From the IMG/VR virus record IMGVR_UViG_3300034061_005656: a stretch of 64,000 nt of DNA; one strand, written 5' to 3'. A model generated the notes under the pieces. The model was given only the letters and a program-made list of their open reading frames with translations. It did no database searches and was not told where the DNA came from. Below are positions 1,434 through 33,756 of the stretch, one piece after another. A program made the translations under genes and the position numbers. The stretch comes from an uncultured virus (IMG/VR IMGVR_UViG_3300034061_005656) (lineage: Duplodnaviria; Heunggongvirae; Uroviricota; Caudoviricetes). The first letter of the stretch is position 1. Each line of letters begins with the position of its first letter.

Positions 1434-1450
<17 letters not shown>
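1091..1450 (+). CDS. Small virion structural protein, probable partner of the collagen fibre
   Basis: '[43 protein letters not shown]' resembles small beta-sandwich proteins that precede phage fibre genes; ATG 1091 preferred over TTG 1073; overlaps the next gene. Confidence 0.65.
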
Positions 1451-3509
<2,059 letters not shown>

Positions 3510-6637: not shown

Positions 6638-7135
6638 ATGTACAAAGAAGAAATAAACCCAATCGGATACGGTGTTGGTGACCCAGCTGTCGCTGAATCG
6701 CTTGCAGAGTGTCTCGGCAACGCAGTAGTTCTTGCTTTTAAAGCTCAAGGACATCACTGGAATGTTATGGGCCCAGACTTTACTCAATACCACGAGTTCT
6801 TTGGCGAAATTTACAGTGATGTGTACGGATCAATTGACCCACTTGCAGAAAATCTTCGCAAGCTCAGTGCTCTTGCTCCATACCGTTTGGCAGAATTTGC
6901 CGCGTTGACAAGTATTGAAGACATGGAATGCGGTTGTAATCCAATGAGCATGTGCCACGATCTTTTTGCTGCAAACGAAATAATGCTTGACTGCCTTAAA
7001 GAAAGTTTTGCAGCAGCCGATGCGGCAAACCAACAAGGCATTGCTGATTTTATTGCAGGGCGAATTGATATGCATCATAAGTGGGCATGGATGCTTCGCG
7101 CGCATCTTACCCCCGTCGACTCAATGTTTCATTAA
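6638..7135 (+). CDS. dps: Dps / ferritin-like protein
   Basis: 'HHWNVMGPDFTQYHEFFGEIY', 'IDPLAENLRKL' and 'HKWAWMLRA' Dps signature segments. Confidence 0.9.
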   Translation: MYKEEINPIGYGVGDPAVAESLAECLGNAVVLAFKAQGHHWNVMGPDFTQYHEFFGEIYSDVYGSIDPLAENLRKLSALAPYRLAEFAALTSIEDMECGCNPMSMCHDLFAANEIMLDCLKESFAAADAANQQGIADFIAGRIDMHHKWAWMLRAHLTPVDSMFH

Positions 7136-8460: not shown

Positions 8461-9009
8461 ATGAAGAAAAAGAAAATTACGAGAAAAACGTTTACAAAGC
8501 AGCATACTCAGCAACTTCGTTCTGAAATTCTTGCTTTACTAGAGCGGTCAAATCTTTACCTACAGGCAGAGCGCCGTGTACCGTTTGCTACCGCAATTGA
8601 AGTAGCAAACCGCGACTTGCGTAAAACACGTGATAGCGAGCCAAGCGCACGTATTTTTTCTGCAATTAAAGCAGTATCTTCGTACATGTCATTAGCGTCT
8701 CGCAATAAAGAGTCAACGATGGCGCTGAGCAACGCAGATCTTTTGCCTGTCGGTCACCCCAACTCTGCTCGCCCGCACGCGATGACAGCATCTGCACTAC
8801 GTCACGCTCAAGCGCAGTGGACAGCCGCCGATCCTTTAGTTGACCCATCTGCGCGTGAACTTGTCATTCGCGCCCACACGGCAACGCCTGGTTCAACTGA
8901 GCGCGCTCATGCGTTTGCTCGTTTGTCCGCCCTTGGCCCTAGTGCCGCGCCTTTAACAGCATCTGTTGACCCGATTCAATACGAAGACGATAACTACCCA
9001 AAAGAGTAG
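8461..9009 (+). CDS. 182-aa head-associated protein; short product of a predicted -1 frameshift gene
   Basis: 'NADLLPVGHP' is paralogous to the 347-aa protein motif; the ORF ends at the slippery site TAC CCA AAA GAG TAG. Confidence 0.75.
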   Translation: MKKKKITRKTFTKQHTQQLRSEILALLERSNLYLQAERRVPFATAIEVANRDLRKTRDSEPSARIFSAIKAVSSYMSLASRNKESTMALSNADLLPVGHPNSARPHAMTASALRHAQAQWTAADPLVDPSARELVIRAHTATPGSTERAHAFARLSALGPSAAPLTASVDPIQYEDDNYPKE

Positions 9010-9026
9010 CGGCTCGCAAGGGCCGC
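8997..9026 (+). promoter_or_regulatory. Predicted -1 programmed ribosomal frameshift signal
   Basis: In-frame X XXY YYZ heptamer C CCA AAA (8997-9003), 5-nt spacer, hairpin GCGGCTC-GCAA-GGGCCGC (9009-9026); the -1 frame is open into the 1591-aa ORF. Confidence 0.8.
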
Positions 9027-9074
9027 GTCCTTCGTCCACACATAGCTTCAGGCAATAGCCGCGCAGAAAAATCG

Positions 9075-12000: not shown

Positions 12001-13850
12001 CAGATTTTTATGGGAATCTAAGCGTAATTTTTGACTTTGCAAGAACACGAGACGAAATTCTTGATTCAAGAGGGACAGAGCTTGTTGCGCAAATAGGTGA
12101 ACCTCGTGGAGCAAACGGACAAATGGGTGCTCTTGAATATCTGCACCCAGAAAATGTAGAACTCTTTAATTCATCTATGACTTCAGCATGGCTCGACAGG
12201 TACGACGAAATATTTGGAGATATACCACGCGAAGTGTTAATACCAAAAGACGAGCCAGAGACAACCCCGTACGAGGCGTACCTAAGAGCAAAAATTACTC
12301 AATTTGATAAAAGTGGAAAAGGAACACTCAAAGAAAACGCTGGAACATTTGGCGAAACAAGAGATGGAAAAGAATTTGGCCTAGATGTAATCAAAGAAGA
12401 GCTTGACCGTGCCATTAGTGCCAGAAAGAATCGGACAAAGGGTGAAGAGAAATTTTCTTCAGATGGTTCTTTGTCACCAGAACCTGAGCCAGCTCAGAGT
12501 GCCGATAGACTCCCAAACAATTCAGTGAGTCTTGAAAAAGAAGCTTCCATGAGTTTTGTACCTAGTGATTACGAGTTAGAAAAAGCTAAAGCAGAACTAG
12601 AAAACCCGGTCAATGCCGCTATTGGGCAAGTGTGGAATATTGGCGGTAAAAAAATACACTTTGGTATGGAAAAAGATCGCAACGTAGTAAAGTACGGCGA
12701 AGACATGGATGACGTAGAAATAGTGCCTATTAACCCGTATAAAATCGCAGGCGTAGAAATGGGCAGTAAAGAAGGAAAAGAGCTCGCGCTTAAGTGGGCG
12801 TACGCTAGATCAGCATTAAGCAGCAATGACGGCACAGGCTATAAATCTACAAGTGAAGTTGACGCGCTTTTGTACGCTGGTGCTCGCGGAGACGAAGCGT
12901 CTTTGGCGCGACTCGAAGAACTGGCTGAAATTGGTAAAGAAAAAGTAGAAAAAATACGAAGTGAAAGACAGGCTGCACTCAAGGACATTGAACCGAAAAG
13001 TGAAACCAATCTTAAGGAGCAAATAGCCAAGGGTTTAGTATCAGAAAAAGATCAAAAGGCAGCAGAACGTATTTTAGGTGGCTCTATTGATGATTTGTAT
13101 GTGGTTCATCAAACTGAGTACGCGTTCCCTATTGACGATGAAGGCAACATTGCACTTAAGCCAGCGTCTGCGTACCCAACAACTCTTGAAGACGGTACAG
13201 AAATATTTGTACCTCGTCACACAATTCATACAGCTCTCAATCACGTTGTTGACCCTATTAAAGAGCGAGGCTGGCCTCCTAACAGTCACATAGCTATTAT
13301 TCCACTTCGCGCCTTATTAGAAGCAAATCCAGGCTCGATCGATAACATTCTTGCAGAAGATACATTTTTTACACCTGAAGCTGGTGGAGTACTAAAATTC
13401 CCTGCCGGGTCGTACAAAACAATAAGTAATGCTACAGATATTGTCTCTGCAAGAGAGCAAGTTTCGGAAGCGATCCGCGAACTTGCAAGACTTGGCTCCT
13501 ACGGCGCACAGGGAGATGAAATAAAGCCAATTATTTTTGAAGAAGGAATTATGGAAATTAGCAATACCGACGCACGCAGGGCGGCATTTAACGCTTTATT
13601 ACAAAGAATTTCAGTCGATTTAGGAATAACAAATCAAATTCACATGGGGACAAATTCGTCTCTTCTTGACAGAGCTGGAGACCAAGATGCGCAGGTGTCT
13701 CAAAATATTGAAAGGTTTTTTACACCAGATTTTCTTTCCAATTTGAGCATAAATCAGATCATGAGACTAACTGTCGGTCGCGACCGCTCGCTATACAGTG
13801 CAGAAACACAAGAGACCAGAGCCGCTCAACAGCAGCAATCTGTTACATAG
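9075..13850 (+). CDS. Giant putative virion-packaged effector 1 (N-terminal RDxxGRF module plus DUF3626-like domains); frame open from 8994
   Basis: N-terminal ~190 aa align by eye with the 4643-aa protein; 'GRFKTQFET..SGG..RPVYGYL..YGE...LK..RATYT..YAEAQVHGGVSL' and a degenerate second copy. Confidence 0.75.
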   Translation: MRARMQRRDRLGRFAEMGGGFSFNFKLSSGGRVSAAGRVVGQSGEDLIEVEMRGVAGVPDGIYSAPSQKGTAAKAILNLEGTNVKTGNIKKSIAKEDEIDISTVQVAAQPSGWTPRNTADGEPKEWSSEDGLVVRQFADSYVAYDTDSAGNPANEIVRGESWADIQKATADYEKRDTPAPAASQDTNARSSDRATSTQLQPTDSLKEAKATGRPLSILRPGTMPKRTQAAYDSIVQSTDGGYKKARELLQKHKELFDRVKEKEASKGTYTSEENAILNEFNDSLIVTESQWNELSEAIKEDYTAAKDGEESAFTEQEVADIVEAITRPLDYRHKLVVNNARAIKDGGQDIYSDELRLQNSAEVLEKADIAIAFPLEVLEKLITDGRFKTQFETNTSGGTLYTQGRMQGDIAQFGYHPRNAPETRPVYGYLTKGGVIDDENFDAVQMYGELQFVLKKDAHSRATYTTQNSLGSGLVPSPMGVPSKDASGAVGNPMAIYAEAQVHGGVSLSDVDYVVVNVGERQPWATHKVSEEQFESISKMLESVGIRVVPVRDGEVVNTWDGGKIVSGPKTQSAEKEKTAKSSKEILDEASALGIKWQGKTVGTSKEEIDRQINSSVKTLRKSKELGLTDIPELSDNIKKIFNDYADGKISLKGMREAILFTDPKDEGLRQWAFGNRQLPIGWRVAAAKEIALSQNDTELVKKIDDFIKFMGDIDNASDEKLEELIRKASVDFGKNMGSPIIQTPDVKRIIRGAGGVTVHDSDERKLDNLSGTTSMGDSITITARRKVETMYGLPFTGENTPEDKAITAMRPISGHSLPKDSYLAREKRMKKIYGEDFVTMYDFPIGSDVADLSQTAKYGRSHIVLSDAVNERTKVVNGDAVTRFGSSGAAVADLESIDEAGIAYADPIGMLFSSMTGDSGASIAGPLDPSFKYNDKYNETATLGTFDPSEVRAVYIADIGQTRREIGDVPQGMNPDFYGNLSVIFDFARTRDEILDSRGTELVAQIGEPRGANGQMGALEYLHPENVELFNSSMTSAWLDRYDEIFGDIPREVLIPKDEPETTPYEAYLRAKITQFDKSGKGTLKENAGTFGETRDGKEFGLDVIKEELDRAISARKNRTKGEEKFSSDGSLSPEPEPAQSADRLPNNSVSLEKEASMSFVPSDYELEKAKAELENPVNAAIGQVWNIGGKKIHFGMEKDRNVVKYGEDMDDVEIVPINPYKIAGVEMGSKEGKELALKWAYARSALSSNDGTGYKSTSEVDALLYAGARGDEASLARLEELAEIGKEKVEKIRSERQAALKDIEPKSETNLKEQIAKGLVSEKDQKAAERILGGSIDDLYVVHQTEYAFPIDDEGNIALKPASAYPTTLEDGTEIFVPRHTIHTALNHVVDPIKERGWPPNSHIAIIPLRALLEANPGSIDNILAEDTFFTPEAGGVLKFPAGSYKTISNATDIVSAREQVSEAIRELARLGSYGAQGDEIKPIIFEEGIMEISNTDARRAAFNALLQRISVDLGITNQIHMGTNSSLLDRAGDQDAQVSQNIERFFTPDFLSNLSINQIMRLTVGRDRSLYSAETQETRAAQQQQSVT

Positions 13851-13960: not shown

Positions 13961-16900
13961 GTGAACGAAGAAAACAACGATTTCGACCCAATTATTGCTG
14001 CGTTAGGCTTTGGCCTCGGTGGTAACTCGAAGGCCGCGCGATCAATGCGCGCGAAACTTCAGCGTCGTGACCGCAGAGGTCGATTTGCCTTTCAGGGCGG
14101 CGGATTCATGTTCAATATCCGCTTTCCGGATGGAGTTCGCAAGCTGTCTGGTCGTGTTGTAGGCGCATCTGGAACTGAAGATGTTGAAATTGAAGTAAAA
14201 GGTAATGACCGTATTCCAGACGGTATCTACGCACTGCCATCAAATAAAGGCGATTCTGTAGCCGCTATTCTTCCCGAGGACGCTCTAAAGGATCTTCCAG
14301 ATGCTGACGTTCGCGCGTCCGAGCGTCTTGCCATTAACGCGGCAGATCTTAAGCGAATGGAGCAGCCTACAGGCTGGACAAAGCAGGTAACTCCTGAGGG
14401 CGAGCCAGAAATCTGGACTTCAGAAGACGGATACTTTGCTAAAAAAGACGGCGATACTTTTACACTTCACCGTGCAGATCTTAGTGACAACTCAATTGGC
14501 GAAGAAGTCGCTCGTGGGAACTCCTGGGCAGACGTACAAAAAGCCGCCCTCGATGACCAAGATGACTATGAAAAAGTTCTTGAGGCAGCGAATACTGCCG
14601 AAAAACCTAGCGCGCCGGGAGCCTCCGCTGCAGATTCTCAAAAAAGAACAAAAGAAAGACTCGAAGCCGCGCGTAAAGCTGGCATTGATTACGGCTCGTT
14701 GACAGACGATGAAATCGCCAAAATCGCGCAGGCGGAATCTGATGAACGATACGCCGGTGGAGTTTGGAAAACTGTCCCGGCTGCAATCCCTAAAGGCGGA
14801 TACAGGACTTCAAAAGGCAACTGGAAAGAGTACGATGAGCCAGATGGCCCACCGACTAGGAAAGAAATTACTGGTGAACAAGCAAAACAAATTCGTCAGC
14901 AGTTTACAGACGCAAGGAAAGAAACTCTTTCTCAGCTACGTGATGCAGTAAATGCCGGAGAAATCGAAAATCTTTCAGATGTTCGTGACATTGCCGAAGG
15001 TCTTAACGTAGCTGGCCAAGCTAATGCCGCTCGTGTAGCAAAGCAAAAGCTTCGGTTTAGCTATAATGGAAAAGATCGCGAAATTACGCCTACAGAAACG
15101 TATTTTAATCCTAAGACCAAAAAAGATAATATTGTTGGTCTTGATGAAAATGGTGAAAAACGTACTTTTACATCGGATAAAATTTTTCCTCCAAATAAAA
15201 AGTCAGAGCAGCCTACTAAAAAAGCCGCCAAAGCGCCAGAGGCACTTGCTCTTGACCCAAACGAAAATCTGGTGCAGCAAATCACAGATGCGGTAGCCGA
15301 TGGCTTAAACGTTCGATTTAATTACAGTGGAAAAGAGCGAAACGTTACCCCGCTTCGCGTGTGGCGTAACCCTAAAACTGAAAAAACAAACCTTACCGCT
15401 AGAGAAGCTGACGGCGCAGAAAAAAACTTTACTCTTGACAAAATCGAGCCACCAACCGGCGCCCCAGACGAGCCACCAACCGGCGGTCCCGGCGAGCCAC
15501 CAACCGGCGGCCCAGACGGAGGCGATTCTCTTGGTTTTGACGACACAGAAGCACTCGTAGATGACATCTATGCTCGCGATTTACTTGGTCTAGAGAATAG
15601 CACTGCAAAGCGCAACTCACTGATGAAGCGTCTTTCCAACGTAATGGCAGACGAAGACCGTGGTATTGGTTTTGACGATTTTGAGCAAGCACTCAATGAA
15701 ATGTACAGCAACGACGAAATCTCTCTGCAAGAACGCAACAATGCTATGACGTATGTTTCGGAGAACATAAGCGATTACGCAGAAGGCGACTTCGGCCCAG
15801 GCGAGCCACCAACCGGCGGCCCAACTGCACCAACCGGTGGCCCAGGAGACTCTCCACAATTCTATAGCACTGACTTTAGTCAAGAGGCTACCTACAACGG
15901 AGAGCCAGTCACTCTTGAGTGGACAAATGATGACCCAGAGTTTGGAATTAGAATAGTAGACTCTGACGGAGAACTAATTGACACTCAGTCGTCTGAAGAC
16001 TATGACTCTCCTCGTGAGTTTGCCGAGTTTATTAGAAGCGAGTTTGGTCAAGAAGTCTACGATACCATTGTTGTAGACGAAGGCACAGGTGCCCCCGCCG
16101 AGCCAGCCGAACCACCAACAGGCGCCCCATCTCGCGATAGTAACATTGATGAGCTGTTTTCTGAATTTGTAAAAGATGATGACCTTTTCAATCTTGAAAG
16201 GTTTTTAGAAGATAGTGTTGATACCTCTGAACAAAACTTTAGAGAGTACTTAAACGACAATGGAATTGACGACGACGTAAGAAACGAAGATGACAAGGCT
16301 AGAGTAGACGATGCAAGAAGAGATTTCTTTGCAGAACTTTATTCTGAAAACTCAGATCGTCTGCGTGAAAAGTTTGCCGAGTACATTAAAAACCGAGACC
16401 CAGAGCTGTACGACGAGCGCATCGGCGAGCCACCAACCGGCGGCCCATCAGCACCAACAGAAGGCCCAGGCGAGCCACCAGAGCAGCACATTATTTCTCT
16501 TAAGGTAGGGACTGCAAAACTTGACAAAGAAGGGTTTGTTCAAACTGGCGTAAGTAAAACGCCTGTTGAAGGCGGGCCTTACGAGTCAACTGGCAATATT
16601 GCTGCTGACATTAGAAAAGAAGCACAGTATGTTATTGACGGCAAAATAAAAGGTGCTAATCCAGATAATGACAATCAATATACTCAGTTTGAAAGATTAA
16701 GCGCTGTCATTGAATTTGAGCGCGAGCGAGGAAATCTGACGGCAGATGACGCGTCATGGCTTCAGTCGTACAATAATGCAGTTTTCCAGTATAGAAACAC
16801 TGCGATGTCTAAAGAAGAATTAAACAATGCAGTTTATTCAATTAATCAGCTAACAGAGCTTCTTGACAAAAAACTGTCTAATTTGCAAAATCCGGCTGCA

Positions 16901-19900
16901 GAAATTGGCCGCAAAGATTCTAAAATATTCTCTGCTCTTACTCAGCTAGGAAGACTGGCTAACGTAGACTTTAGAGATAGAAAAAAAGTTGTAGAAATAA
17001 TTAAAAATATTCTTGATGAAGAAATAAGCAGTGGAAACATAAGCCAACAAGATAAAAATAGTGTCTTACCTGCGCTAGATAATTTAGCAGATCCGATGAC
17101 TTCTGACTCTTCTGTTGAAGGAATTGTTTCAGCGCTTATCGGTGAAGTTAAGTCATGGTACGAAGAGCCAAAAAACTGGACGGGCTTTCCAAATCCGGAC
17201 AAAGTAATACTTGACTCATGGGTAAATAATTTTTCTCCTGACAAGCGTGTAAAAATTAACTACGACGGAGAGCCACTTATCTTTGAGCCAGAGCGTGTAG
17301 TACCTTCTAAGTTTGACGGAGTTACACTAGTCGTCGGAAAAGACATGACAGGCCAGGAGCTGATTCTCCGCTCCGATAGAATAAATACAACAGATAATGC
17401 ATCAGAAGGCGAGCCACCGACAGGCGGCCCAACTCCACCCGCAAATCCTTTTGCAAATCTTCGCGAAACCGACCCCGGTAAGTTTGAGTCGTTTAAAGAT
17501 ATCTACGACGATGCGTCAGACCGCGAAATTGAAGTTCGTATGGCGCTTGACGAACTCTATAACGTACCCTTTGGTAGAGACTACGAAGACCCTGCTACAG
17601 GCGAGCGCATTAGCTCTGGTCAAATTGCAGATTTAATTAAAAAGTACGATACTGAACTTCAAGACATTCGCGCTGGCAGAGTAGCGCCAGAATCAGAGCC
17701 AACAGACGGTTTAACTAATATTGATCCAGCAAAAGAAATGTTTGACGACATGTTTGAAGCGCCGGACGGTGCGTACAAGCCAAACATTTTCGATGTGTAT
17801 GAGCCAAAAGGTCGTCAAGAAGACAATAGCCTTGAGTACACAGACGATCCGTCAGTTCTTTCTAACAGATTCAGCCCGTCTGAACTTATTTTCGCGCTTA
17901 AAGAAGCTGTAGTCCCAGTCAATGGAGAAGAAGCCAGCGGATTTGGATCTCTTAATTTTGGTGACGGCAATGAGCTTGTCCCAGCTGAAGCGCTTTATGA
18001 AGCACTAGACTTAACAGGTGCCAGTGGCCGTAAAACTCTTTCTGCAATTTATGACGAAGAACTTGGCCCAGACGCCGACTCGCCTAATATGCAAAGATAC
18101 GAAATCGACATGGCTGATATGCGCATGCTCGACGATGCAGATCTTCAACCTCTCGATAAGACAATTTTGTCTGACGAAGAAGCCATTGAGTTAAACAGAA
18201 GACTAAGTCTTCCAAGTAATGCTCAAATTCTTCTTGACGAAATGAATGATTACGTTGAAACAAATCCTAAAATTCAAGAGCTTGCAGATTTTTTAAGTCA
18301 GTTTGAAGAATTTGATGACTATGACCCAGATGCTCTTACAAAAGCTCTAGAAAAGTATTTACCATTTGCGTTCAGCAGCGATAGAGAAGAGCAAGACACA
18401 TTTAAAGCTCTTTGGGGAATGCTCATGTCGCTTGACGGTAGCTCAAGCGAAAAATACGATCAAGACTCTCTCTTTAGAGGACCTTTAATGAGAGCGTTTG
18501 AAGACAGATTTGGTAGTTCGTGGGAGCTTGAGTACGATTCATTCCTCGACGAAATCGGTGAGTTTAACGAGTTTGTACAAGGTAAAAATAGAATTGTTAA
18601 CGGAGACGACGATCTCGACTCGGGCTCTGTCGGAGCTAATTTTTTACGTTTAATGAAAGCGTCTTCTAAAATAAATGAAGTACGGCTTCAGCGTTCATTT
18701 GGAGTTTCAATAACCAACCCGGCGTTGGTTAGCAGATACACTACCCCTGGAAGCATTTTTTCGCTAGATCCTCGCCCGTTTTCAACAGCAAATTTTGCGG
18801 ACGAAGATTTGTTTCAGGCGTTTTCTCCAACAAAATCTACAGAACATCGCGTAGTTTTAGTCGCCGCTCCTGGAGAAGTACAAAGTACTTCAGCAGTCGG
18901 TATTTCATGGTTTACAGGCGAAAAAGAGCACATCGGTTTCGGTGAGTTTGAAGTAGTATCAGTCGATCGTAAGCCCGCTTCTCGGTTGCGTGCTGGTGCG
19001 CCCGATGACCTTATTGTCACAATTAAAAAAGCAGACACAAGCGTTGAAGATCTTGCAGCAGAAGACGCCGCTGGCGCGCCTCAAGCAGCGCAAGATGTGC
19101 CAGCACGTGAAATCAAAGATGTTTCAAACTGGACGCGCACAGGCGACCAAACCGGCGGCTCAAACTCTGGCGCATTCTACGAAGACGAAAATGGCCAAGG
19201 CTATTACGTTAAAGTAGCTAAGTCACAGTCTCATGCTGAAAACGAAACACTTGCATCAGCGTTTTATGACGCGCTAGGCGTATCGTCTGCTGAAGTAAGC
19301 GTAGGCGATAGAAATGGCAGTCCGCGAGTTGTTTCAAAGTTAATTCCTAATTCAGTTGGGGATCTCGAATCTCGAGTGGATTCAGGCGATGAAGAGTATC
19401 TTGACAAGCTTCGCAAGGATTTTATTGTCGATGCTTGGCTGGCAAACTATGACGTAACAGGCACCGGATTTGACAACGTCATGTCTGATGGAGACGGGAA
19501 CCCAATTCGTATTGACCCAGGCGGCGCGCTTATGTGGCGCGCACAAGGTTTACCGAAATCTACACTTGGTATGTTTACGGAAGAAAGCGATTACGTACCA
19601 GAAATTGACTCGCTTCGAGACAGCGACATAAACTACTACGCGTGGTCCGTGTTTGGTTCGCTTACTGATGATGATATACGCGCCCAGGCAGAGCGCCTGC
19701 GAGACAGCATGTCTCCAGAGCGAATTAACGCAATTGTTGACAGCATTGTTACTGACCCAGCAGAAGCAGCGTTTATTAAAGAGCGCTTGCGAAATCGTCG
19801 TCAGGGCATTCTTGATCGCTTTGGTCTTGAAGAGCGTCAAGCACTTACAGAACCAGTGTCAATCGAAGACAGCATGGGATATGCTGCACAAGATCTTGAG

Positions 19901-22900
19901 CCTGGCGACGTTACAGTTGGCGACTCGTTTACTGTTGAAAGAGTATTCCGCGACGAAGACACGCCGAAAGGCAAGGTCAGCATTGAAGGCTACTTCCCAG
20001 GTCACCAGACTCAAAGAAAAGAGTGGAACGAAGGCACAATAATTGACGCAATGCGCGGCGGATCTACTCCGCCTAAAGGCGACCGTGAGCCATTGCATCG
20101 ACCTAAGAGGCCAGGATACACTCCAACTGCTCCGTCATTTAGCGGTGGAATTGCAGATGAGCTTGAGGCCGCACAGTCGTGGGGAGAAATTCGTGACATT
20201 CTTGCAGATAAAGACGTTGTCTTTTTTGACTATGAAACAACAGGTCTTGGTGCTGGATCACAGAATCGCCCAGTCCAACTTGGTGCGGTTAAAGTGCGCA
20301 ATGGGGAAGTCATTGAACGTTTCAATGTTTTTATTGATCCCAACGAAGAGCTGAGTGAATGGTCACGCCTGAATCTTAGAGACGCAGACGGTAATCCTCT
20401 CACCGATGAATACCTTTCACAGCAGGTCGGCATGGGCGAAGCTCATTCACTGTTTGTTGATTGGATGGGAGAAAACCCAATTATTGGCGCGCACAACTTG
20501 CCGTTTGACCGAGAAATTCTTGAGCGAATTACAGGTGAAGAAAATATTGATTTTTCACCAGATGGCTACATAGATACTTTGCGTCTTACTCGTGACTTGG
20601 TCAAGAAAAAGACAAAGAAAAACCCAGACGGTCCAGAAGGTCATAAACTTCCACAGTTGCTAAATCACTACGGTCTTGAAATTGAAGGCTGGCACGCAGC
20701 AGACGTTGACGCAGAAAGTGCTGCTAATTTGTTACGAGCCGTTCTCGATGATGCAGCCGGTCGCCCTGACGTTGATCCAAAAACATTTGATTTTAAGACG
20801 CAGCAGCGTGACTACAACGACGCGATGAGTCGTCACAATGAGAATGTAGAAAAGTACAAAGACGAACTTGCCGAGTACGAAGCAAAGAAAGCTGTTGCTG
20901 CCGCATGGAATTGCGGCGGTGGCGGTGGCGGTTTAACTGCCGCGGCTACAGAAGATGGCAATAGTGATTGTAACGTTCCGTCAATCGATGACATGATTGA
21001 CAACGCAAGTGTTAAGCCTGGTGAATTGTCTGACCCAGAGTCAATTACATCTGGCGATACCGCCAAGGGAGACAGTCCATACGATGAAGATGTCACTGAC
21101 ATTATAGAAATCGAGGATTTGTACCCAATAGACGGAGAAGCATACGCTCCGACTGCGCAGCAACAAGCAGTTATCAATTCAGTTTTGTCCAATGAAGGAT
21201 CAGATACTGTAGTTCGTGCAGCTGCTGGAGCTGGAAAAACAAGCACGCTTGTTGCTCTTGCAAAGCGCTTCCAAAAATACAAGCCAGATAAAAAAATTAT
21301 TTACATCGCGTTTAACCGCTCTGTTGCAGACGAAGCGCGTGCAAAAATGCCGTCAAACGTTGAAGTACGAACTGCAGACTCTATTTCATACAACTGGGTA
21401 AAGATAAACTTCCCAGAGTTAATAAAGAAAAAAGGCAATCCAGATCGTCTTGCTGCACCAACAGATATTGCAAAGCATCTTGATGTTCCTTCTGTAGGCC
21501 AAGGCGATGACAGAATTTCAGCAGTCAAAATGGTTAAAGAACTGCGACAAGCGGTATACCAATATACAATTAGCGCAGATAAAGAACTTGGACCTCAGCA
21601 TTTTGAAGAAACTGAACTGACTCCGGATCAAGTGACACCAGAAGTAGTCGAAGCAGCTCAGCGCTGGTGGGCAGACATTTTAGATCCAAAAGGCAAAATG
21701 CCATTTGACTTTAACCACATGAAAAAAATGTGGGCATTGTCAGAGCCTGACTTGTCAGACGAAAGCTCTGGATTAAAAACTGGTGCCGATCTTGTTTTTG
21801 TTGACGAATTTCAAGATACGAACGATGTTCTTGGGACCGTACTTGTCAACCAGCCAAACACTCAAAACGTTTACGTTGGAGATGAAAACCAGGCAATTTA
21901 CCAATTTATGGGCGCCAAAGACTGGCTACAAAAAGTCGTCGTAGAATTTGATCTCCCACTTACTCAGTCGTTCCGCTTCGGCCCAGTAATTGCTCGACAA
22001 GGCAACCGATTCCTACGATTTAAAGAACGCTATCTTGGGTCAAAGAAAACGTTTAGTGTTGAAGGCGCCGGTCCAACAGAAGGCGAGCTCATACGGCCGA
22101 ACACAATGGAAGACGCTGACGCTGTTTTAGTTCGTTCAAACGCCGGAGCGTTTAGAGAAGTTCGTGAAGAACTAATGAACGGTAGAACTGTCGGTGTTAC
22201 AAAAGGCTTCAAGAAAGATCTTGATGATTTTATCGCTGCAGTCGACTGGTTACAAGGCGATCCGGCAACACGCGGCAAGCGCCCAGCAAGAATGCCTGAA
22301 GATCTTCGTCAATTTAATTCTTGGCAAAAAGTAGTCGATGAATCTAAAGATGAAGAAAATGAGTTTAGTCGTAAGCTAGAAATTCTTATTAATGACGTCG
22401 AAGAGCTAGGAATCGAAGAGCTCAAGAATTTGGCAAAGCAGGTTAAGGTAGTCACTGGCGCAGGCGACAAAAAAGACGTCGAATCTGTGCCTTCTCTTCC
22501 AGAAGACTTGTCAGTCGGAATTGAAGAAGCCGATGGAATTGGCAAAGGAATTGGCTTTAAGATTGTAAAAGATGGCATTATCATTACAGGCAAAACATTT
22601 GATGTAAAAGATAAAATCAAATCTTCAAACTCCGGAGTCAAGTGGGATAAGGCGCGTGGTGGATGGTTTATTCCGTCTAGCGCAGACGATGCTAGCCGCA
22701 GACAGCGACTTCAAAACGTTCAAAATGCTGTGTTTTCAGAGTCTGAAAAGCAAGGCGGTAAAGTAGACGTTGTTATTTCAACAGTTCACCAGGCCAAAGG
22801 TCTTGAATGGCCTAAGGTGCGAATGGGCAAAGACTTCTTTGGTCCGCGTAAGCGCAAAGGAATGGAAGACGCTCAGCCTGGAGATCCAAATGCTTGGATT

Positions 22901-25900
22901 ATGCCAAACGAGTCGGAAATTCATCTTGCGTACGTAGCAGTTACCCGAGCAATGGAGCAAGTTGACACTGGCTCACTTAGCTGGCTTGACGACTGGGTTG
23001 CAGACGAAGATCCAGAAGTCAACCCGGACATAAACGCTCCTGAAGCTCCTGAAGCTCCTGAAGCTCCTGAAGTTGTTGAGATTCCTGAAGTTGCTGATTT
23101 GCAAGAAACTGATGTACCAGAAGCGCCAGACACAGTAGCTGAGCCTGTGCAACCTACTGGCATTAAGTATGCAGCGCCAGGCATGGCTCCTTCTAAAGAT
23201 CAAATTCAAAAAGATCTTGATGACACTTTTGATGAAGTCTTTAACTTTATTGAGCAGCTGATAGACCCAGAAACAACGCTTCTTGCAAAGGCCACTACAA
23301 AATCTGGAATTAGAAAAACTAAAGATAAGCTTCAAGACCTTAGAGATAACCTTAATTCTGGAAAAATCACAAATAACGAAGCTGCACAAGAGTTGGCAAG
23401 TATTGTTGACAACCTCCCCGGCGGTGTTGGAAACGAAACTGTAGAAATTGGCGTTCTTGAAGATCTTTTGTCTGATGTTTCACGAATTTTTGACGGTACT
23501 TTTTATCAGCGCCCAACTGGCCCAGATCTTCCGCCTATTGAAAGTACTCGCGGGTACTCAAAGAACGGTGTATTCTTAGTGCCTGGAATGCGCGTACGTG
23601 ATAAGTGGGGATACGCCGGAACTATTGATCGCTACAAAAAAGATGACTGGGTTAACGTTTATGTTGTTCGAGACATTGGAATTCCAGCAAAGCCAGAAAA
23701 TTACCAACAGTCAAAAAACACTGAGCAATTGACTACGATTCCAGAAGGCGGCGATAATCGTTCATGGGCATACGTTGCTGGAATGCCGCTCAATAAGCTT
23801 CCAGACAACTGGCGTGAACTTGCGACTCCTGGAGAAATTGCAGACATTGAAGCTGCAATGGCAAAAGCCAGCGGCAAAGGCGCAAAGCCTTCAGTAAAGG
23901 ACATCCCACCTGGAGACGATGACGGCGGCGACGGCGGTGGTGGCGGCGGCGGAGTTAGCCCGGCGCCTAGCGACGATGACGGCGGCAACTCCCCAAAAGC
24001 TGAAGCCCCGGAGGGGGCACCCGAGGTCCCTGAAGAGCCACAGCAAGATTTTGTCACAGTTCCGGCTGAGTTAGTTGGCGCTGACACTGTAGAAATTGTA
24101 GATCTTGCTGATAAGTTTTCTGATGTAGAGCCATTAACTGCGCCAGAGCATAAAGCACTTGTAAAAGAACTAACTAAGTCAGCAAAAGAAGACGGCGTAA
24201 TGTCCAGAGTTAAAAACGGTTACACTGCTCTTAAAAGGTACAGATTTGTAGGATCTTCTGCTTTAAACGCACTACTAAGAAAAGAGCCTCGGGACTACGT
24301 AGCAAGTATCCAAGCGTCTCACAAAAAGACGCTCGAAGAAAGAAAGCAATCTGGCTACGTTATTCCTGATGATTACGTAGAAATGCTGAATTCAAAACAA
24401 TCAACAAGTTTAGAAGAAGCAACTGCTACTCAGCAAGTACTAGACGATCTTTTTGACGAAGCGCCAAGCCTTGGTAGGTCAATGATTTTGTTTAGAGGAG
24501 TAACAAGTAGCTTTGGGTCAGAACTAGAAAAGTATGAAGTAGGAGAACAGTTTACAGATTTTGGGTACGGGTCAACTTCAACTTCTAAGAAAAAAGCAAA
24601 AGATTTTATAGCACCATACGCATCTCAAGAAGACCAAAAAGACGGGGTGATTATAGAAATTCTTATTGACGAAAACACTAGAGCCATTTCGCCTATGGCG
24701 CTCATTAACTCAGAGTTAGACAACGGGAACGACGTCGAGCAAGAGATTCTTATTGATCGTGGCACTACTTATCAAGTGGTAAGCAAGACGCCAGCAACTC
24801 CAACGCAGCCAAGAACAATACGAGTTGCTGTCGTCAGTCAAGACAGAAGTTTATCGCCAGTTACCGAGGCTCCTGAAGAAGAATCGCCTATTGCTGTAGT
24901 CGAAGAGTCAAGTGTTGATGCCGCGGGGATCAAGCCTGAGTGGCAAACCATGCCTGCAAACGCTTCTGCTGAAGACATAGCAAACAGTCTGAGCGACTAC
25001 TACGCAAAAAATAAGTTTTCGGTAAAAAAAGATGATCTTACAGACGAAGAAGTAGAAGCTGCTCAGCAACTTCTTGAGTATACTCAAGATGACTACATGC
25101 TTGTCAACAGAGAATTGCGTGCCTCTTCAAAATCTAACTTAGAAGATGTAGATTCAGACGCGCTGGAAATAGTTAATGCAATTGACAGTTTAATGGACAC
25201 TGCGCCTACCCTTCCGCAGGATCTTGTACTTTACAGAGGTGTTCATAGCTCGTATTCAAATAACACCATAAGGCCTCTTAATGTTGGAGATTTATTTACA
25301 GATAAAGGATATGTTTCAACATCTTTTAATTCAGAAGTAGCTGAAGATTTTTCTAGCTACGGGTCTGATCTGCCTGACGAGTCTATGGGAAGTGAAATTG
25401 TTCTTGAAATTGTCGCACCGGAAGGCACAAGAGGCATTTTTGTCCCTGGATACTTTGAAGACGATCCAAAAAACGAGCAAGAAATAATTCTTGATAGAGG
25501 CACAACCTTTAGAGTTATTTCTAAGGTAGAAGACAGCAGAGGCATTCTGCAAAAAATTAGAGTAGCCGTAGTTGACCAAGAAAGAGCTGGCTACAGAGAG
25601 CCTGATAGCAATGAAAGATTTGATTTTTCTGAAGTTACGCCAGCAGGTCGGCCAACTCCAATTATAGAAAATCCAAAAACGCTAAGTGAATCATCATTTG
25701 AAAATATAGATTCTCTTATGGCATCAGTAGATAGTGTCGTAAATAGAACAACAACTGCTAAAAATACAGTAGCGGCAGTCGACGGACCAGACATTGAAGA
25801 TATGGAAGTAAAAGTATCAGCATTAGTTGATTCTGTAACTCAAGAAAGATTTTTACGACTTAGATTTAAGCTTACCTCATGGGCTGGAGTTGCGCAAAGG

Positions 25901-27892
25901 AAAAAAGCAAGTAAAAAAGACTCACCGTGGGGAATAGAAAACGAAATTAAAATTCCTACAACAACTTTATTGCCAAATGGAGACATTAGGGTAGACAAAG
26001 AAAAATCTTCGCTGTTGACTTACGATGAATCGTACGCAAAAACGTACAGTAGAGACTTGCCGATAGACGCTGGCGTTGCTAAAATACAGTTATTACAAGG
26101 CAGGCCTAGAGAAACTCTTGGCGTAGAAAAAAATGACTACGCTACTCCTACTGCACTTCATCACTTAGTGACAATTGACTTGCCAATTGATGCAACTGAA
26201 AGTGACATTAAGCGCGCAATTGAAGCCGCAGGAGTTCGAGAGGCGCGTGCGGCCGCACCGGAAGATTTACGTATTTTAGCTGAAAATAAGCTACTTAGCA
26301 TATTTTTGAATCAAACAGATCCTTCTAAAAACATGACGGATCAGCTAAGAAGAGACAATGCGCTCGAAAAAATTAAAGCAAAATGGGGAGTATCTGCTGA
26401 AGATGTTGAAATTGCCACTGACGATCTTGGATTTTTAACTTTTAAACTTCCAGAGTCTGTTGCAGAAGCATACACAGAAGAAGCAGGACTTTTTGCATTA
26501 CAACATCAACTAGCGCCAGGCCGCATTGCATTTAGCATATACCAAGAAGACCCCAGCATTGGTTATGATTCTCCTGAACTTCGTAAGCTAACTGCTGACT
26601 ATATAGTAAATCTCATAACAGGTACAGGCTTGGTGTCGACGACGAATAGATTTTTGTCAGGAATCAACATTTCCGGTATGTCGTCTCAGGAAGACATCGG
26701 GACTGGCGGCGCCGACTACGTATTTACTTCTCCAGTTCGTTCTCCTGCCACTGCAGATCCATCATACGGGGACGCCATGTCAGTACTCTTTGATCCAAAA
26801 AAGGTTTTTCAACGCGCTGATTTTTACGCAAATCCTAGAGACGAGTACGGGCGACGCTACGAGGCAAGCAGCAGCCTTGAAGCTATTCAAGATGGTGGTT
26901 CAAACGCAGAAGTAATGAGTAAGCACGGTTTAGGACCTAAAGACTTAATGGGCATGATAGTCGGACCAGACTATTACAGCTACATTATGGACTCGCTAAA
27001 AGAAAAAAATATCACAGAAATTAACGGAATTCCAATCGAACAATTTGTCTCTGCGACTTACTACAACCCGCCATCTCCCGGCCTTGTTGATTCAGCGGGA
27101 CTGCCGACACAGTTTGGGCAGGCAACTACTCAGTTAATACAGTCAATAAGCGCTGCTGATGGCGCTTTTTACACTGCAGACTATGATAGCACGGATAACG
27201 CTGGGATATTGGGAGAGTTCAATAGAATAGCCGGTACAAAATTAGCTAAGGCAACACTTCCTTTTGATGAAGAAGATGCGCAAATAGTAGGTTTTTTGAC
27301 AGATAAAGAAGGCGGTCTCATTATTAGAGACGCTAAAACAAACAACTTATATATTCAAAAGTCATACGCCCCTATGAGCAGCAGCCCTCAGTTTTTCGCG
27401 CTGGGCCCGACAGCTGCAGACGACGCGGCGCTTAAGCTAATACAAGGGTACAACGCCGGAGCTACGATTGACACTGCTATATTTGAAAACATGCCAGTCG
27501 AGGCTGTGCCGCTTACGTCACCTACAGGCGATATGACTAATGACAGCGATATCAGATATATGAAAACAAAGCTAGAAAGCTTTTCTGCTGGAGACTCTGA
27601 TAAAGACGAGTATGTTGATAAAATTGCTAATTATATTGTCGCATCAATGCTTTTAGCAGAGCCTCATCATTGGCCGTTTTTAGGAGATTACTTTTCTGCA
27701 GTGAGTGACCTTTTTGAGGCTTTTCCAGAAGTGAAAAAAAGAGTACAAATAGTAACTGCACCGACACTTACATGGTCATATTTTGCTGGAATGCCGCTCG
27801 ATGAGTTGCCAAGTAATTGGAGAGAAATTGCGACTCCTGGAGAAATTGCAGACATTGAAGCTGCAATGGCAAAGGCAGCAGGCACAAAGTAA
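13961..27892 (+). CDS. Giant 4643-aa multi-enzyme protein: RDxxGRF module, 3 WYL-like, ART-like, HipA/PI3K-like kinase, DEDDh exonuclease, SF1 (UvrD-like) helicase, 2 VIP2-like ADP-ribosyltransferases, unknown C-terminal domain
   Basis: Exonuclease FDYETTG/GAHNLPFD/HAADVD; helicase AAAGAGKT/DEFQD/VGDENQAIY/STVHQAKGLEW/YVAVTRA; ART L(F/Y)RGV..STS..EQEI(L/I) twice; kinase YYVK..ENE..DAWLANYD..RIDPG. Confidence 0.88.
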   Translation: MNEENNDFDPIIAALGFGLGGNSKAARSMRAKLQRRDRRGRFAFQGGGFMFNIRFPDGVRKLSGRVVGASGTEDVEIEVKGNDRIPDGIYALPSNKGDSVAAILPEDALKDLPDADVRASERLAINAADLKRMEQPTGWTKQVTPEGEPEIWTSEDGYFAKKDGDTFTLHRADLSDNSIGEEVARGNSWADVQKAALDDQDDYEKVLEAANTAEKPSAPGASAADSQKRTKERLEAARKAGIDYGSLTDDEIAKIAQAESDERYAGGVWKTVPAAIPKGGYRTSKGNWKEYDEPDGPPTRKEITGEQAKQIRQQFTDARKETLSQLRDAVNAGEIENLSDVRDIAEGLNVAGQANAARVAKQKLRFSYNGKDREITPTETYFNPKTKKDNIVGLDENGEKRTFTSDKIFPPNKKSEQPTKKAAKAPEALALDPNENLVQQITDAVADGLNVRFNYSGKERNVTPLRVWRNPKTEKTNLTAREADGAEKNFTLDKIEPPTGAPDEPPTGGPGEPPTGGPDGGDSLGFDDTEALVDDIYARDLLGLENSTAKRNSLMKRLSNVMADEDRGIGFDDFEQALNEMYSNDEISLQERNNAMTYVSENISDYAEGDFGPGEPPTGGPTAPTGGPGDSPQFYSTDFSQEATYNGEPVTLEWTNDDPEFGIRIVDSDGELIDTQSSEDYDSPREFAEFIRSEFGQEVYDTIVVDEGTGAPAEPAEPPTGAPSRDSNIDELFSEFVKDDDLFNLERFLEDSVDTSEQNFREYLNDNGIDDDVRNEDDKARVDDARRDFFAELYSENSDRLREKFAEYIKNRDPELYDERIGEPPTGGPSAPTEGPGEPPEQHIISLKVGTAKLDKEGFVQTGVSKTPVEGGPYESTGNIAADIRKEAQYVIDGKIKGANPDNDNQYTQFERLSAVIEFERERGNLTADDASWLQSYNNAVFQYRNTAMSKEELNNAVYSINQLTELLDKKLSNLQNPAAEIGRKDSKIFSALTQLGRLANVDFRDRKKVVEIIKNILDEEISSGNISQQDKNSVLPALDNLADPMTSDSSVEGIVSALIGEVKSWYEEPKNWTGFPNPDKVILDSWVNNFSPDKRVKINYDGEPLIFEPERVVPSKFDGVTLVVGKDMTGQELILRSDRINTTDNASEGEPPTGGPTPPANPFANLRETDPGKFESFKDIYDDASDREIEVRMALDELYNVPFGRDYEDPATGERISSGQIADLIKKYDTELQDIRAGRVAPESEPTDGLTNIDPAKEMFDDMFEAPDGAYKPNIFDVYEPKGRQEDNSLEYTDDPSVLSNRFSPSELIFALKEAVVPVNGEEASGFGSLNFGDGNELVPAEALYEALDLTGASGRKTLSAIYDEELGPDADSPNMQRYEIDMADMRMLDDADLQPLDKTILSDEEAIELNRRLSLPSNAQILLDEMNDYVETNPKIQELADFLSQFEEFDDYDPDALTKALEKYLPFAFSSDREEQDTFKALWGMLMSLDGSSSEKYDQDSLFRGPLMRAFEDRFGSSWELEYDSFLDEIGEFNEFVQGKNRIVNGDDDLDSGSVGANFLRLMKASSKINEVRLQRSFGVSITNPALVSRYTTPGSIFSLDPRPFSTANFADEDLFQAFSPTKSTEHRVVLVAAPGEVQSTSAVGISWFTGEKEHIGFGEFEVVSVDRKPASRLRAGAPDDLIVTIKKADTSVEDLAAEDAAGAPQAAQDVPAREIKDVSNWTRTGDQTGGSNSGAFYEDENGQGYYVKVAKSQSHAENETLASAFYDALGVSSAEVSVGDRNGSPRVVSKLIPNSVGDLESRVDSGDEEYLDKLRKDFIVDAWLANYDVTGTGFDNVMSDGDGNPIRIDPGGALMWRAQGLPKSTLGMFTEESDYVPEIDSLRDSDINYYAWSVFGSLTDDDIRAQAERLRDSMSPERINAIVDSIVTDPAEAAFIKERLRNRRQGILDRFGLEERQALTEPVSIEDSMGYAAQDLEPGDVTVGDSFTVERVFRDEDTPKGKVSIEGYFPGHQTQRKEWNEGTIIDAMRGGSTPPKGDREPLHRPKRPGYTPTAPSFSGGIADELEAAQSWGEIRDILADKDVVFFDYETTGLGAGSQNRPVQLGAVKVRNGEVIERFNVFIDPNEELSEWSRLNLRDADGNPLTDEYLSQQVGMGEAHSLFVDWMGENPIIGAHNLPFDREILERITGEENIDFSPDGYIDTLRLTRDLVKKKTKKNPDGPEGHKLPQLLNHYGLEIEGWHAADVDAESAANLLRAVLDDAAGRPDVDPKTFDFKTQQRDYNDAMSRHNENVEKYKDELAEYEAKKAVAAAWNCGGGGGGLTAAATEDGNSDCNVPSIDDMIDNASVKPGELSDPESITSGDTAKGDSPYDEDVTDIIEIEDLYPIDGEAYAPTAQQQAVINSVLSNEGSDTVVRAAAGAGKTSTLVALAKRFQKYKPDKKIIYIAFNRSVADEARAKMPSNVEVRTADSISYNWVKINFPELIKKKGNPDRLAAPTDIAKHLDVPSVGQGDDRISAVKMVKELRQAVYQYTISADKELGPQHFEETELTPDQVTPEVVEAAQRWWADILDPKGKMPFDFNHMKKMWALSEPDLSDESSGLKTGADLVFVDEFQDTNDVLGTVLVNQPNTQNVYVGDENQAIYQFMGAKDWLQKVVVEFDLPLTQSFRFGPVIARQGNRFLRFKERYLGSKKTFSVEGAGPTEGELIRPNTMEDADAVLVRSNAGAFREVREELMNGRTVGVTKGFKKDLDDFIAAVDWLQGDPATRGKRPARMPEDLRQFNSWQKVVDESKDEENEFSRKLEILINDVEELGIEELKNLAKQVKVVTGAGDKKDVESVPSLPEDLSVGIEEADGIGKGIGFKIVKDGIIITGKTFDVKDKIKSSNSGVKWDKARGGWFIPSSADDASRRQRLQNVQNAVFSESEKQGGKVDVVISTVHQAKGLEWPKVRMGKDFFGPRKRKGMEDAQPGDPNAWIMPNESEIHLAYVAVTRAMEQVDTGSLSWLDDWVADEDPEVNPDINAPEAPEAPEAPEVVEIPEVADLQETDVPEAPDTVAEPVQPTGIKYAAPGMAPSKDQIQKDLDDTFDEVFNFIEQLIDPETTLLAKATTKSGIRKTKDKLQDLRDNLNSGKITNNEAAQELASIVDNLPGGVGNETVEIGVLEDLLSDVSRIFDGTFYQRPTGPDLPPIESTRGYSKNGVFLVPGMRVRDKWGYAGTIDRYKKDDWVNVYVVRDIGIPAKPENYQQSKNTEQLTTIPEGGDNRSWAYVAGMPLNKLPDNWRELATPGEIADIEAAMAKASGKGAKPSVKDIPPGDDDGGDGGGGGGGVSPAPSDDDGGNSPKAEAPEGAPEVPEEPQQDFVTVPAELVGADTVEIVDLADKFSDVEPLTAPEHKALVKELTKSAKEDGVMSRVKNGYTALKRYRFVGSSALNALLRKEPRDYVASIQASHKKTLEERKQSGYVIPDDYVEMLNSKQSTSLEEATATQQVLDDLFDEAPSLGRSMILFRGVTSSFGSELEKYEVGEQFTDFGYGSTSTSKKKAKDFIAPYASQEDQKDGVIIEILIDENTRAISPMALINSELDNGNDVEQEILIDRGTTYQVVSKTPATPTQPRTIRVAVVSQDRSLSPVTEAPEEESPIAVVEESSVDAAGIKPEWQTMPANASAEDIANSLSDYYAKNKFSVKKDDLTDEEVEAAQQLLEYTQDDYMLVNRELRASSKSNLEDVDSDALEIVNAIDSLMDTAPTLPQDLVLYRGVHSSYSNNTIRPLNVGDLFTDKGYVSTSFNSEVAEDFSSYGSDLPDESMGSEIVLEIVAPEGTRGIFVPGYFEDDPKNEQEIILDRGTTFRVISKVEDSRGILQKIRVAVVDQERAGYREPDSNERFDFSEVTPAGRPTPIIENPKTLSESSFENIDSLMASVDSVVNRTTTAKNTVAAVDGPDIEDMEVKVSALVDSVTQERFLRLRFKLTSWAGVAQRKKASKKDSPWGIENEIKIPTTTLLPNGDIRVDKEKSSLLTYDESYAKTYSRDLPIDAGVAKIQLLQGRPRETLGVEKNDYATPTALHHLVTIDLPIDATESDIKRAIEAAGVREARAAAPEDLRILAENKLLSIFLNQTDPSKNMTDQLRRDNALEKIKAKWGVSAEDVEIATDDLGFLTFKLPESVAEAYTEEAGLFALQHQLAPGRIAFSIYQEDPSIGYDSPELRKLTADYIVNLITGTGLVSTTNRFLSGINISGMSSQEDIGTGGADYVFTSPVRSPATADPSYGDAMSVLFDPKKVFQRADFYANPRDEYGRRYEASSSLEAIQDGGSNAEVMSKHGLGPKDLMGMIVGPDYYSYIMDSLKEKNITEINGIPIEQFVSATYYNPPSPGLVDSAGLPTQFGQATTQLIQSISAADGAFYTADYDSTDNAGILGEFNRIAGTKLAKATLPFDEEDAQIVGFLTDKEGGLIIRDAKTNNLYIQKSYAPMSSSPQFFALGPTAADDAALKLIQGYNAGATIDTAIFENMPVEAVPLTSPTGDMTNDSDIRYMKTKLESFSAGDSDKDEYVDKIANYIVASMLLAEPHHWPFLGDYFSAVSDLFEAFPEVKKRVQIVTAPTLTWSYFAGMPLDELPSNWREIATPGEIADIEAAMAKAAGTK
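15446..17430 (+). repeat. Dispersed GAGCCACCAACCGGC-type (EPPTG) linker repeats within the giant ORF
   Basis: Copies at about 15446, 15470, 15494, 15803, 16109, 16427 and 17411. Confidence 0.85.
23820..23865 (+). repeat. 46-bp direct repeat, copy 1 (within a ~40-codon duplicated segment)
   Basis: TTGCGACTCCTGGAGAAATTGCAGACATTGAAGCTGCAATGGCAAA, identical to 27828-27873. Confidence 0.92.
23992..24018 (+). promoter_or_regulatory. Second predicted -1 frameshift signal (would truncate the giant protein)
   Basis: In-frame C CCA AAA (23992-23998), 6-nt spacer, hairpin GCCCC-GGAG-GGGGC; the -1 frame reads CCC AAA AGC TGA. Confidence 0.6.
27828..27873 (+). repeat. 46-bp direct repeat, copy 2 (C-terminus of the giant ORF)
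   Basis: Identical to 23820-23865. Confidence 0.92.
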
Positions 27893-33645: not shown

Positions 33646-33756
33646 AAAAGATAGGCAAGTGCCTCCACACTGAGTGTGTTTGGAGTCCCTTTCCTTGGAC
33701 AGAAACCCGATGTAGACCTATAGGTGGTCTACCCTGACTGGCCCGGAGGAGGGACA

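Follow-up and report, generated by a model that had tools for sequence, protein, structure and literature searches.

A candidate truncating −1 frameshift site in the giant polyvalent-protein gene of an uncultured tailed phage lies within a 27-nucleotide cassette conserved at the nucleotide level

Does a giant phage gene with a slippery sequence before its last domains encode one protein or two? The question is raised by a 64,000-nucleotide (nt) stretch of DNA from an uncultured virus of the Caudoviricetes (IMG/VR record IMGVR_UViG_3300034061_005656), which was analysed over its full length and is called the window below. An open reading frame (ORF) on its + strand, 13961..27892, encodes a polyvalent virion-module protein of 4643 amino acids (aa), the zero-frame, full-length product, and contains the heptamer C_CCA_AAA at 23992..23998. 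With a probability of roughly 80%, we read this site as a dnaX-like programmed −1 frameshift, which would yield products of 3347 and 4643 aa; this reading is based on comparison of sequences.

The zero-frame codons from 23990 are TCC CCA AAA GCT GAA GCC CCG GAG GGG GCA. The heptamer lies in the frame of the ORF and is followed by a G at 23999, and after a spacer of 6 nt the hairpin GCCCC-GGAG-GGGGC (24005..24018, + strand) begins, with arms at 24005-24009 and 24014-24018, five G:C base pairs, a GGAG loop and a predicted centroid energy of −11.6 kcal/mol. In the −1 frame the same strand reads AGC (23998-24000) and then TGA (24001-24003). The candidate signal is therefore 27 nt long, C_CCA_AAA_G-N5-GCCCC-N4-GGGGC, encoding PKxxAPxGA, and the G+C content at the site is 0.63-0.70 versus a window mean of 0.46. 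A first-pass annotation of this DNA had described the in-frame heptamer with its following G, the hairpin 6 nt later, the G+C-rich patch at the end of a Gly/Asp linker and the immediate −1 stop, all of which were confirmed at these coordinates.

In the proposed mechanism, the tRNAs decoding CCA-AAA would re-pair one base back on CCC-AAA, and the slip would be aided by the 5-bp G:C hairpin and its tetraloop, beginning 6 nt downstream. Shifted ribosomes would read AGC and then UGA, so that the product released would be 3347 aa long and end in GGNSPKS. This short form would consist of the N-terminal region, exonuclease, helicase and conserved domain, and would lack the ~750-aa C-terminal module that most relatives share. 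Unshifted ribosomes would make the 4643-aa form, which adds two VIP2-like ADP-ribosyltransferase domains and the conserved C-terminal module. That ribosomes slip here, how often they do so and that both products are used are inferred. A short form of ~3,350 aa beside the 4643-aa form had been expected by the first-pass annotation; the truncation point and the loss of cargo agree with this, the exact length being 3347 aa, and its description of a truncating event comparable to dnaX tau/gamma also fits. Transcriptional slippage was rejected as a candidate, as the run of four A is too short for it.

No close DNA relative spanning the site was found. A DNA similarity search of GenBank phages gave no match, a DNA search for loci related to the region gave 38 pattern matches of which none was confirmed, and the nearest DNA record (G001), 100% identical and from the same phage, is a 33.8-kilobase (kb) fragment that stops short of the site. 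Relatives were instead collected at the protein level, by a HMMER search with aa 3051-3651 against 1.84 billion representatives, which located the upstream domain within giant proteins 800-7000 aa long. The family protein set comprised 29 sequences, namely the window's protein and 28 of the best 32 HMMER matches; the other four (P0024, P0027, P0029 and P0031) were excluded because they matched the ADP-ribosyltransferase part only. Exactly one copy of P-K-[AVG]-[EKDSN]-A-P-x-G-A was present in 28 of the 29 proteins, always in a low-complexity linker, the only protein lacking it being P0021, a 797-aa fragment. The conserved residues of this peptide are those encoded by the heptamer (x-P-K) and the stem arms (A-P ... 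G-A), and the variable ones are encoded by the spacer and the loop. A protein-level search of GenBank gave just two weak records, one of them phage DSL-LC01 (OQ999401.1), deposited as an Actinomycetia phage, whose site reads CGC CCA AAA GGT GAA GCC CCT TCG GGG GCT and sits in an ORF annotated as a single 3289-aa hypothetical protein.

A peptide of this regularity might be functional in its own right, for example as a head maturation protease site or a docking motif, with the nucleotides merely encoding it. Its presence in 28 of 29 family proteins is in keeping with such a role, as are the head-module location of the gene, whose neighbour is protease-like, and the proteolytic processing that PMC5512222 proposes for polyvalent proteins. 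What a functional peptide cannot do is fix third codon positions, and it is there that the two explanations part.

The scan patterns used to collect DNA loci fixed amino acids only and left every third codon position free. The pattern CCNAARGCNGARGCNCCNNNNGGNGC gave 17 loci in viral contigs and at least 119 matches in metagenomes, which were mostly chance matches and had two family loci among the matches listed; the wider CCNAARGNNRANGCNCCNNNNGGNGC gave at least 113 stretches in viral contigs. Family membership was called from the flanks, which were compared by blastx after masking of the motif, and the third-position-free scans provided 24 family loci, 12 of them distinct, among the matches listed. 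All 12 distinct sequences have the form xxC CCA AAA G[C/G/T]T GAN GCC CCN NNN GGG GCN, with a −1 stop within two codons. Together with the window and DSL-LC01 they make a sample of 14, in which five features are invariant (14/14): the C ahead of the Pro codon, CCA itself, AAA, the T responsible for the −1 stop, and the third bases of the stem codons (GCC, GGG). The G after the heptamer is likewise unchanged (14/14). Free to vary are the spacer residues, the loop at each of its four bases, and the third base both of the Glu/Asp codon and of the Ala codon that follows the stem.

Two details of this pattern concern frame rather than peptide. The residue preceding Pro differs among the family sequences (L, R, S, T or F), yet its codon always ends in C. 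Furthermore, the −1 stop keeps its position despite differing zero-frame residues (AE, AD, GE, GD, VE, VD and AS), TGA arising in the −1 frame from GCT GAR, GCT GAT, GGT GAR, GTT GAC and GTT GAG. The nucleotide-level scan described below added GCT AGC, which gives TAG, in two giant-protein loci (L255 and L291), and GGT AAC, which gives TAA, in a portal ORF (L261).

The codon usage of the surrounding gene was assessed in 16 family sequences, 14 of which came from the nucleotide-level scan and so were used for their flanks only. Their upstream 400 aa are 20-86% identical in pairwise comparison (median 31%). Of 13 upstream residues that are almost invariant, not one forms a single-codon column (mean top-codon share 0.56), and conserved residues near the site use 2-4 codons each. 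With flank frequencies of 0.42 for CCA, 0.32 for AAA, 0.19 for GCC, 0.24 for GCT, 0.06 for GGG and 0.29 for C in the third position, flank usage predicts that all six synonymous choices would occur together at ~1e-4 per sequence. GGG is the rarest Gly codon in the family genes, yet it is invariably used in the cassette. In a positional profile of the 16 sequences, only three elements stand out as conserved: the octamer, the −1 stop with its T-(G/A)-A, and both arms of the stem. As a control, 53 further occurrences of this peptide pattern within ORFs were examined among the matches listed; 46 had no cassette, and the single features occurred at frequencies of 14-26 in 53.

The synonymous positions are thus fixed in the cassette and free in the flanks, indicating selection on the nucleotides and not on the peptide only. 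The pattern of conservation, as read from sequence, is that expected of a −1 signal, with an in-frame X_XXY_YYZ heptamer, a fixed 6-nt spacer, fixed arms around a free loop and a protected −1 stop. The first-pass annotation had suggested asking whether relatives keep the heptamer and hairpin, as they do in 14 of 14 distinct family sequences, and had held that free synonymous variation of both would speak against it; the opposite was found, with 14/14 invariant and neighbouring synonymous positions varying. Its other suggestion, that relatives might encode the downstream cargo in the −1 frame, held for no relative examined. For a peptide that is merely encoded, the six synonymous choices invariant in 14/14 and the constant use of the rarest Gly codon (0.06) are not accounted for, and the motif also follows Cro/CI-type helix-turn-helix (HTH) domains, which are not virion proteins. 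We consider the functional-peptide explanation very unlikely.

The same 27 nt occur outside the giant proteins. All seven of the 53 non-family peptide matches that do have the cassette carry it in inter-domain linkers of phage-type genes, comprising one PrimPol-AAA_25 ORF, two portal ORFs and four metagenome HTH_3 ORFs. In the last four (metagenome contigs L144, L158, L216 and L239) a cassette of identical nucleotides stands directly 3′ of a Cro/CI-type HTH_3 domain; the four ORFs are different and small, and their C-terminal parts are unrelated. A −1 shift in these genes would leave an HTH-only protein.

A scan at the nucleotide level with CCCAAAAG-N5-GCCCC-N4-GGGGC found 59 loci in viral contigs. 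Fifteen lie outside long ORFs (defined as those in which each side of the cassette is open over 250 codons or more, or as far as the locus end) and are terminator-like in appearance. The other 44 lie in long ORFs, and in every one of them (44/44) the cassette is in the slippery frame; neither of the alternative frames is ever used. The distance to the −1 stop is 1 codon in 28 of these ORFs, 4-7 codons in 11 and 14-42 codons in 5. Pfam was run on 20 of the 30 distinct cassette ORFs, the other 10 being evident members of the giant-protein family, and gave the layout portal-[NUDIX]-cassette-Phage_Mu_F in 11 ORFs. Further layouts were Portal_Mu-cassette-NUDIX, portal-cassette-kinase-like, portal-cassette-NUDIX and Prim-Pol-cassette-AAA_25. 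Inter-domain cassettes are present in portal-[NUDIX]-MuF, portal-NUDIX, portal-kinase-like and PrimPol-AAA_25 ORFs (L252, L262, L270, L271, L277, L281, L283, L286, L290, L298, L251; L244, L254, L261, L266; L260). In the portal-MuF group the −1 stop comes 4-7 codons on, often as a TGA within the hairpin loop. Bacterial genomes also contain ORF-embedded copies in the slippery frame, in contigs of Actinobaculum, Nocardioides, Kitasatospora and Streptomyces among 10 such matches, the carriers in Nocardioides agariphilus, Kitasatospora mediocidica and Streptomyces prunicolor being prophages.

Within the giant proteins, the position of the motif coincides with a change in the architecture. Collinearity between related proteins breaks, or an insertion starts, 2-66 residues past the motif in five of seven pairs (P0017/P0018, P0032/P0033, P0009/P0012, P0006/P0019 and P0026/P0013), so that the cassette marks a boundary between a conserved core and variable cargo. 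This would be the arrangement left by a joint at the DNA level, at which cargo modules are swapped by recombination without any recoding, and the occurrence of the cassette in unrelated gene families is what a mobile junction would give. The free third base of the spacer and the free loop, however, leave identical runs of 5-10 bases only. Moreover, recombination does not explain why the reading frame is the same in every one of the ORFs (44/44), why a −1 stop is maintained by three different stop codons, or why the codon before Pro ends in C regardless of the residue it encodes (L, R, S, T, F or V). As a replacement for recoding we regard the recombination joint as unlikely, although less so than the other alternatives discussed here, and it may be an added role of the cassette rather than a rival to the frameshift.

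Several points weigh against a programmed −1 frameshift and need to be set beside these data. Judged from the window alone, the 23992 site is not above chance, as ORF 13961..27892 contains 25 in-frame X_XXY_YYZ heptamers (63 per 19,279 codons across the window) and, of 200 dinucleotide shuffles, 125 fold at least as stably as the hairpin (z +0.34). A hairpin of 5 bp is a weak stimulator beside the classical examples, and the 16-sequence profile shows no conserved purine-rich, Shine-Dalgarno-like block 5′ of the site, only a G at −11 being frequent. The stem never varies among relatives, so there is no compensatory change to prove the pairing. The 14 family sequences are of common ancestry and not fully independent, and they are a sample rather than a census, such that family members without the cassette may have escaped the scans. 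Finally, when bacterial genomes were searched with the bare nucleotide pattern, 84 of 100 matches were in no long ORF and were mostly terminator-like and intergenic, and outside ORFs the pattern alone is therefore not diagnostic.

The intergenic matches raise the possibility that the hairpin has another job, such as terminating transcription (internally or antisense), offering an RNase site or pausing translation between domains, and many of the non-coding matches do resemble intrinsic terminators on the opposite strand. At the window site, a scan of 23500-24500 found no terminator-like site on either strand, and the G+C-rich hairpin is not followed by the immediate T-run of an intrinsic terminator. 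In the family, the opposite-strand bases beside the stem vary, leaving no fixed T-tract, which argues against a terminator. The heptamer, the frame and the −1 stop are not accounted for by any of these jobs, which together we consider slightly less probable than a functional peptide.

Chance in the strict sense would mean that the site has no function in the phage and that heptamer and hairpin are by-products of a Gly/Pro/Ala-rich linker. The abundance of such heptamers in the ORF and the insignificance of the hairpin against shuffles would both follow, and a search of Rfam found nothing near significance at the site (best E-values 2.4 and 7.8, far under the gathering thresholds). All of the comparative results contradict this explanation, and it is the least probable of the alternatives. 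The programmed −1 frameshift remains our preferred reading.

A broader and more tentative proposal, to which we give somewhat less than even odds, is that the 27-nt unit is a portable recoding cassette that has spread among unrelated phage genes and makes fused ORFs into two-isoform genes at their inter-domain linkers. Its hosts would be giant polyvalent virion proteins, portal-[NUDIX]-MuF, portal-kinase and PrimPol-helicase ORFs and Cro/CI-type HTH regulators, and in the giant proteins it would also mark, and perhaps serve as, the joint for cargo exchange.

In one viral contig (L255) the unit GTC CCA AAA GCT AGC occurs twice in tandem register, the first copy ~27 nt 5′ of the cassette, and the hairpin is present 3′ of the second copy only. 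About 20 Collinsella assemblies have in common CCCAAAAGAAGAGGCCCC-NNNN-GGGGC, where the slippery-frame ORF closes after a further 16 codons and the open −1 frame extends over ~71 (L308, L316, L325, L329-L331, L336, L337, L343, L348, L365, L372, L376, L378, L380, L383, L384, L389 and L390).

The domains of the 4643-aa protein, all encoded on the + strand, show what a shift at 23992 would separate. Pfam identifies an RNase_T exonuclease (aa 2087-2258), a UvrD-type helicase (aa 2398-2999) N-terminal to the slippery site and, beyond the site, two stretches of ADPrib_exo_Tox, a VIP2-like ADP-ribosyltransferase (best at aa 3681-3857). Between helicase and site, HMMER comparison with the representatives delimits a conserved domain at 23108..23875 (aa 3051-3305), which is an internal domain in ~30 giant proteins of public genomes and metagenomes. 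It is followed by the Gly/Asp/Pro-rich, G+C-rich linker that leads into the site (23876..23989, aa 3306-3343). The region that only unshifted ribosomes would reach, 24019..27892, holds the two VIP2-like domains and the ~750-aa C-terminal module common to relatives. Searches of PHROGs with pieces of the 4643-aa protein gave no match, and a PDB sequence search gave none for the upstream domain or for the C-terminal module. Several unrelated enzymatic domains in one polypeptide (RNase_T, UvrD helicase and two ADPrib_exo_Tox), with virion genes alongside, place it with the polyvalent proteins, and, judging by gene position only, it would be packaged and passed into the host.

The long form's final 53 aa (27731..27889, + strand) are a repeat of aa 3252-3305 (23714-23875), with 58-63% identity, and the internal copy stops 38 residues ahead of the slippery site. 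Both isoforms would consequently bear the same element near their C-termini. The C-terminal repeat is present in one of the 29 family proteins, that of the window.

The heptamer CCCAAAA occurs three times on the + strand of the window, at 6013, 8997 and 23992, each time in the slippery frame. As the first-pass annotation had stated, the octamer CCCAAAAG at 23992 is the same as that at 8997. There C_CCA_AAA_G is followed after 5 nt by a stronger, different hairpin of 7 bp with a GCAA loop (z −2.3), and the −1 frame is open for 1615 codons, linking ORF 8461..9009 to ORF 9075..13850. Homology to the N-terminus of the 4643-aa protein starts at 9051, 5′ of the annotated TTG start, and the 182-aa domain of this junction is fused in frame in many relatives. 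The stretch 8997-9030 has the appearance of a head-module frameshift that extends its product, as opposed to a G/GT site of a tail chaperone. The 8997 site and the C-terminal repeat are two local observations that fit a genuine short form. The third CCCAAAAG, at 6013, is in the slippery frame of the portal gene, has no hairpin 3′ of it and meets a −1 stop after 9 codons, and is probably a chance copy.

The gene order of the head module is portal (4865-6628), the 182-aa ORF, a 1591-aa ORF, the 4643-aa ORF, a 1364-aa ORF whose PHROG matches are protease-like, and the gene for the major head protein (33724-35664), with the tape measure gene at 40947-43961, ~17 kb 3′ of the slippery site. A ferritin-like gene (6638-7135) follows the portal gene, ahead of the giant-protein genes, and a collagen-repeat, tail-fibre-like gene (1434-3509) lies at the window start. 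Three large head-module ORFs have an N-terminal motif of the type GGNS..R..RA..QRRDRxGRFA..GGGF (9051-9170, 13961-14140 and 29990-30121), which may be a common targeting element.

If the reading is correct, the giant polyvalent ORFs of a widespread, largely uncultured phage group would each encode two proteins, and the ribosome, rather than a promoter or a protease, would set the dose of toxin-like ADP-ribosyltransferase cargo relative to the core. Head-module and replication genes would join the short list of bacterial and phage genes with truncating −1 frameshifts. The unit would be a natural recoding element of very small size, with an encoded peptide that linkers tolerate, and would offer annotators a simple 27-nt diagnostic. 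Moreover, a cassette at the boundary of core and cargo ties recoding to the modular evolution of phage effector proteins.

Among known systems, the closest in protein architecture are the polyvalent proteins of phages and conjugative elements (Iyer, Burroughs, Anand, de Souza and Aravind, 2017; PMC5512222), which in that account are likewise giant, combine nuclease, helicase and ADP-ribosyltransferase domains and are encoded among virion genes. In contrast to the present reading, proteolytic processing is proposed there, and the words “frameshift” and “recoding” do not occur in the main text. VIP2-like ADP-ribosyltransferases have been described in 24 freshwater phages (PMC6802176), again with no occurrence of “frameshift” in the accessible text of the paper. 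Literature searches for polyvalent protein with frameshift, and for portal-MuF with programmed frameshift, found no published description of such a site (subscription papers and supplements lying outside their coverage), and no CCCAAAA frameshift in phages was among the literature matches listed.

The tail assembly chaperone G/GT of long-tailed phages is made by a −1 frameshift, reportedly described by Levin in 1993 and by Xu, Hendrix and Duda in 2004. The two cases are alike in being conserved −1 frameshifts, here a predicted one, in a phage structural module that set the ratio of two related products. Unlike the present site, which would truncate and is located between the portal and major head protein genes, the G/GT shift extends the product and lies just 5′ of the tape measure gene. 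A G/GT-type site was rejected as a candidate on these grounds, the module being the wrong one (head module, ~17 kb from the tape measure gene) and the outcome truncating.

The E. coli dnaX gene gives tau and gamma, a full-length and a C-terminally truncated protein, from one gene by a programmed −1 frameshift. Like dnaX, the site at 23992 has an in-frame heptamer ending in Lys codons, a stem-loop 3′ of it (here a predicted one) and a −1 stop almost at once. It differs in the heptamer, C_CCA_AAA as opposed to the A_AAA_AAG of dnaX, in a hairpin of 5 bp only and in having no conserved Shine-Dalgarno-like stimulator 5′ of the slip. The gene itself is also of another kind, a head-module polyvalent protein of a phage, and the 27-nt cassette recurs in unrelated genes. 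The mechanism is already known in kind; a compact, sequence-conserved cassette in translated linkers that recurs across unrelated phage genes appears to be new.

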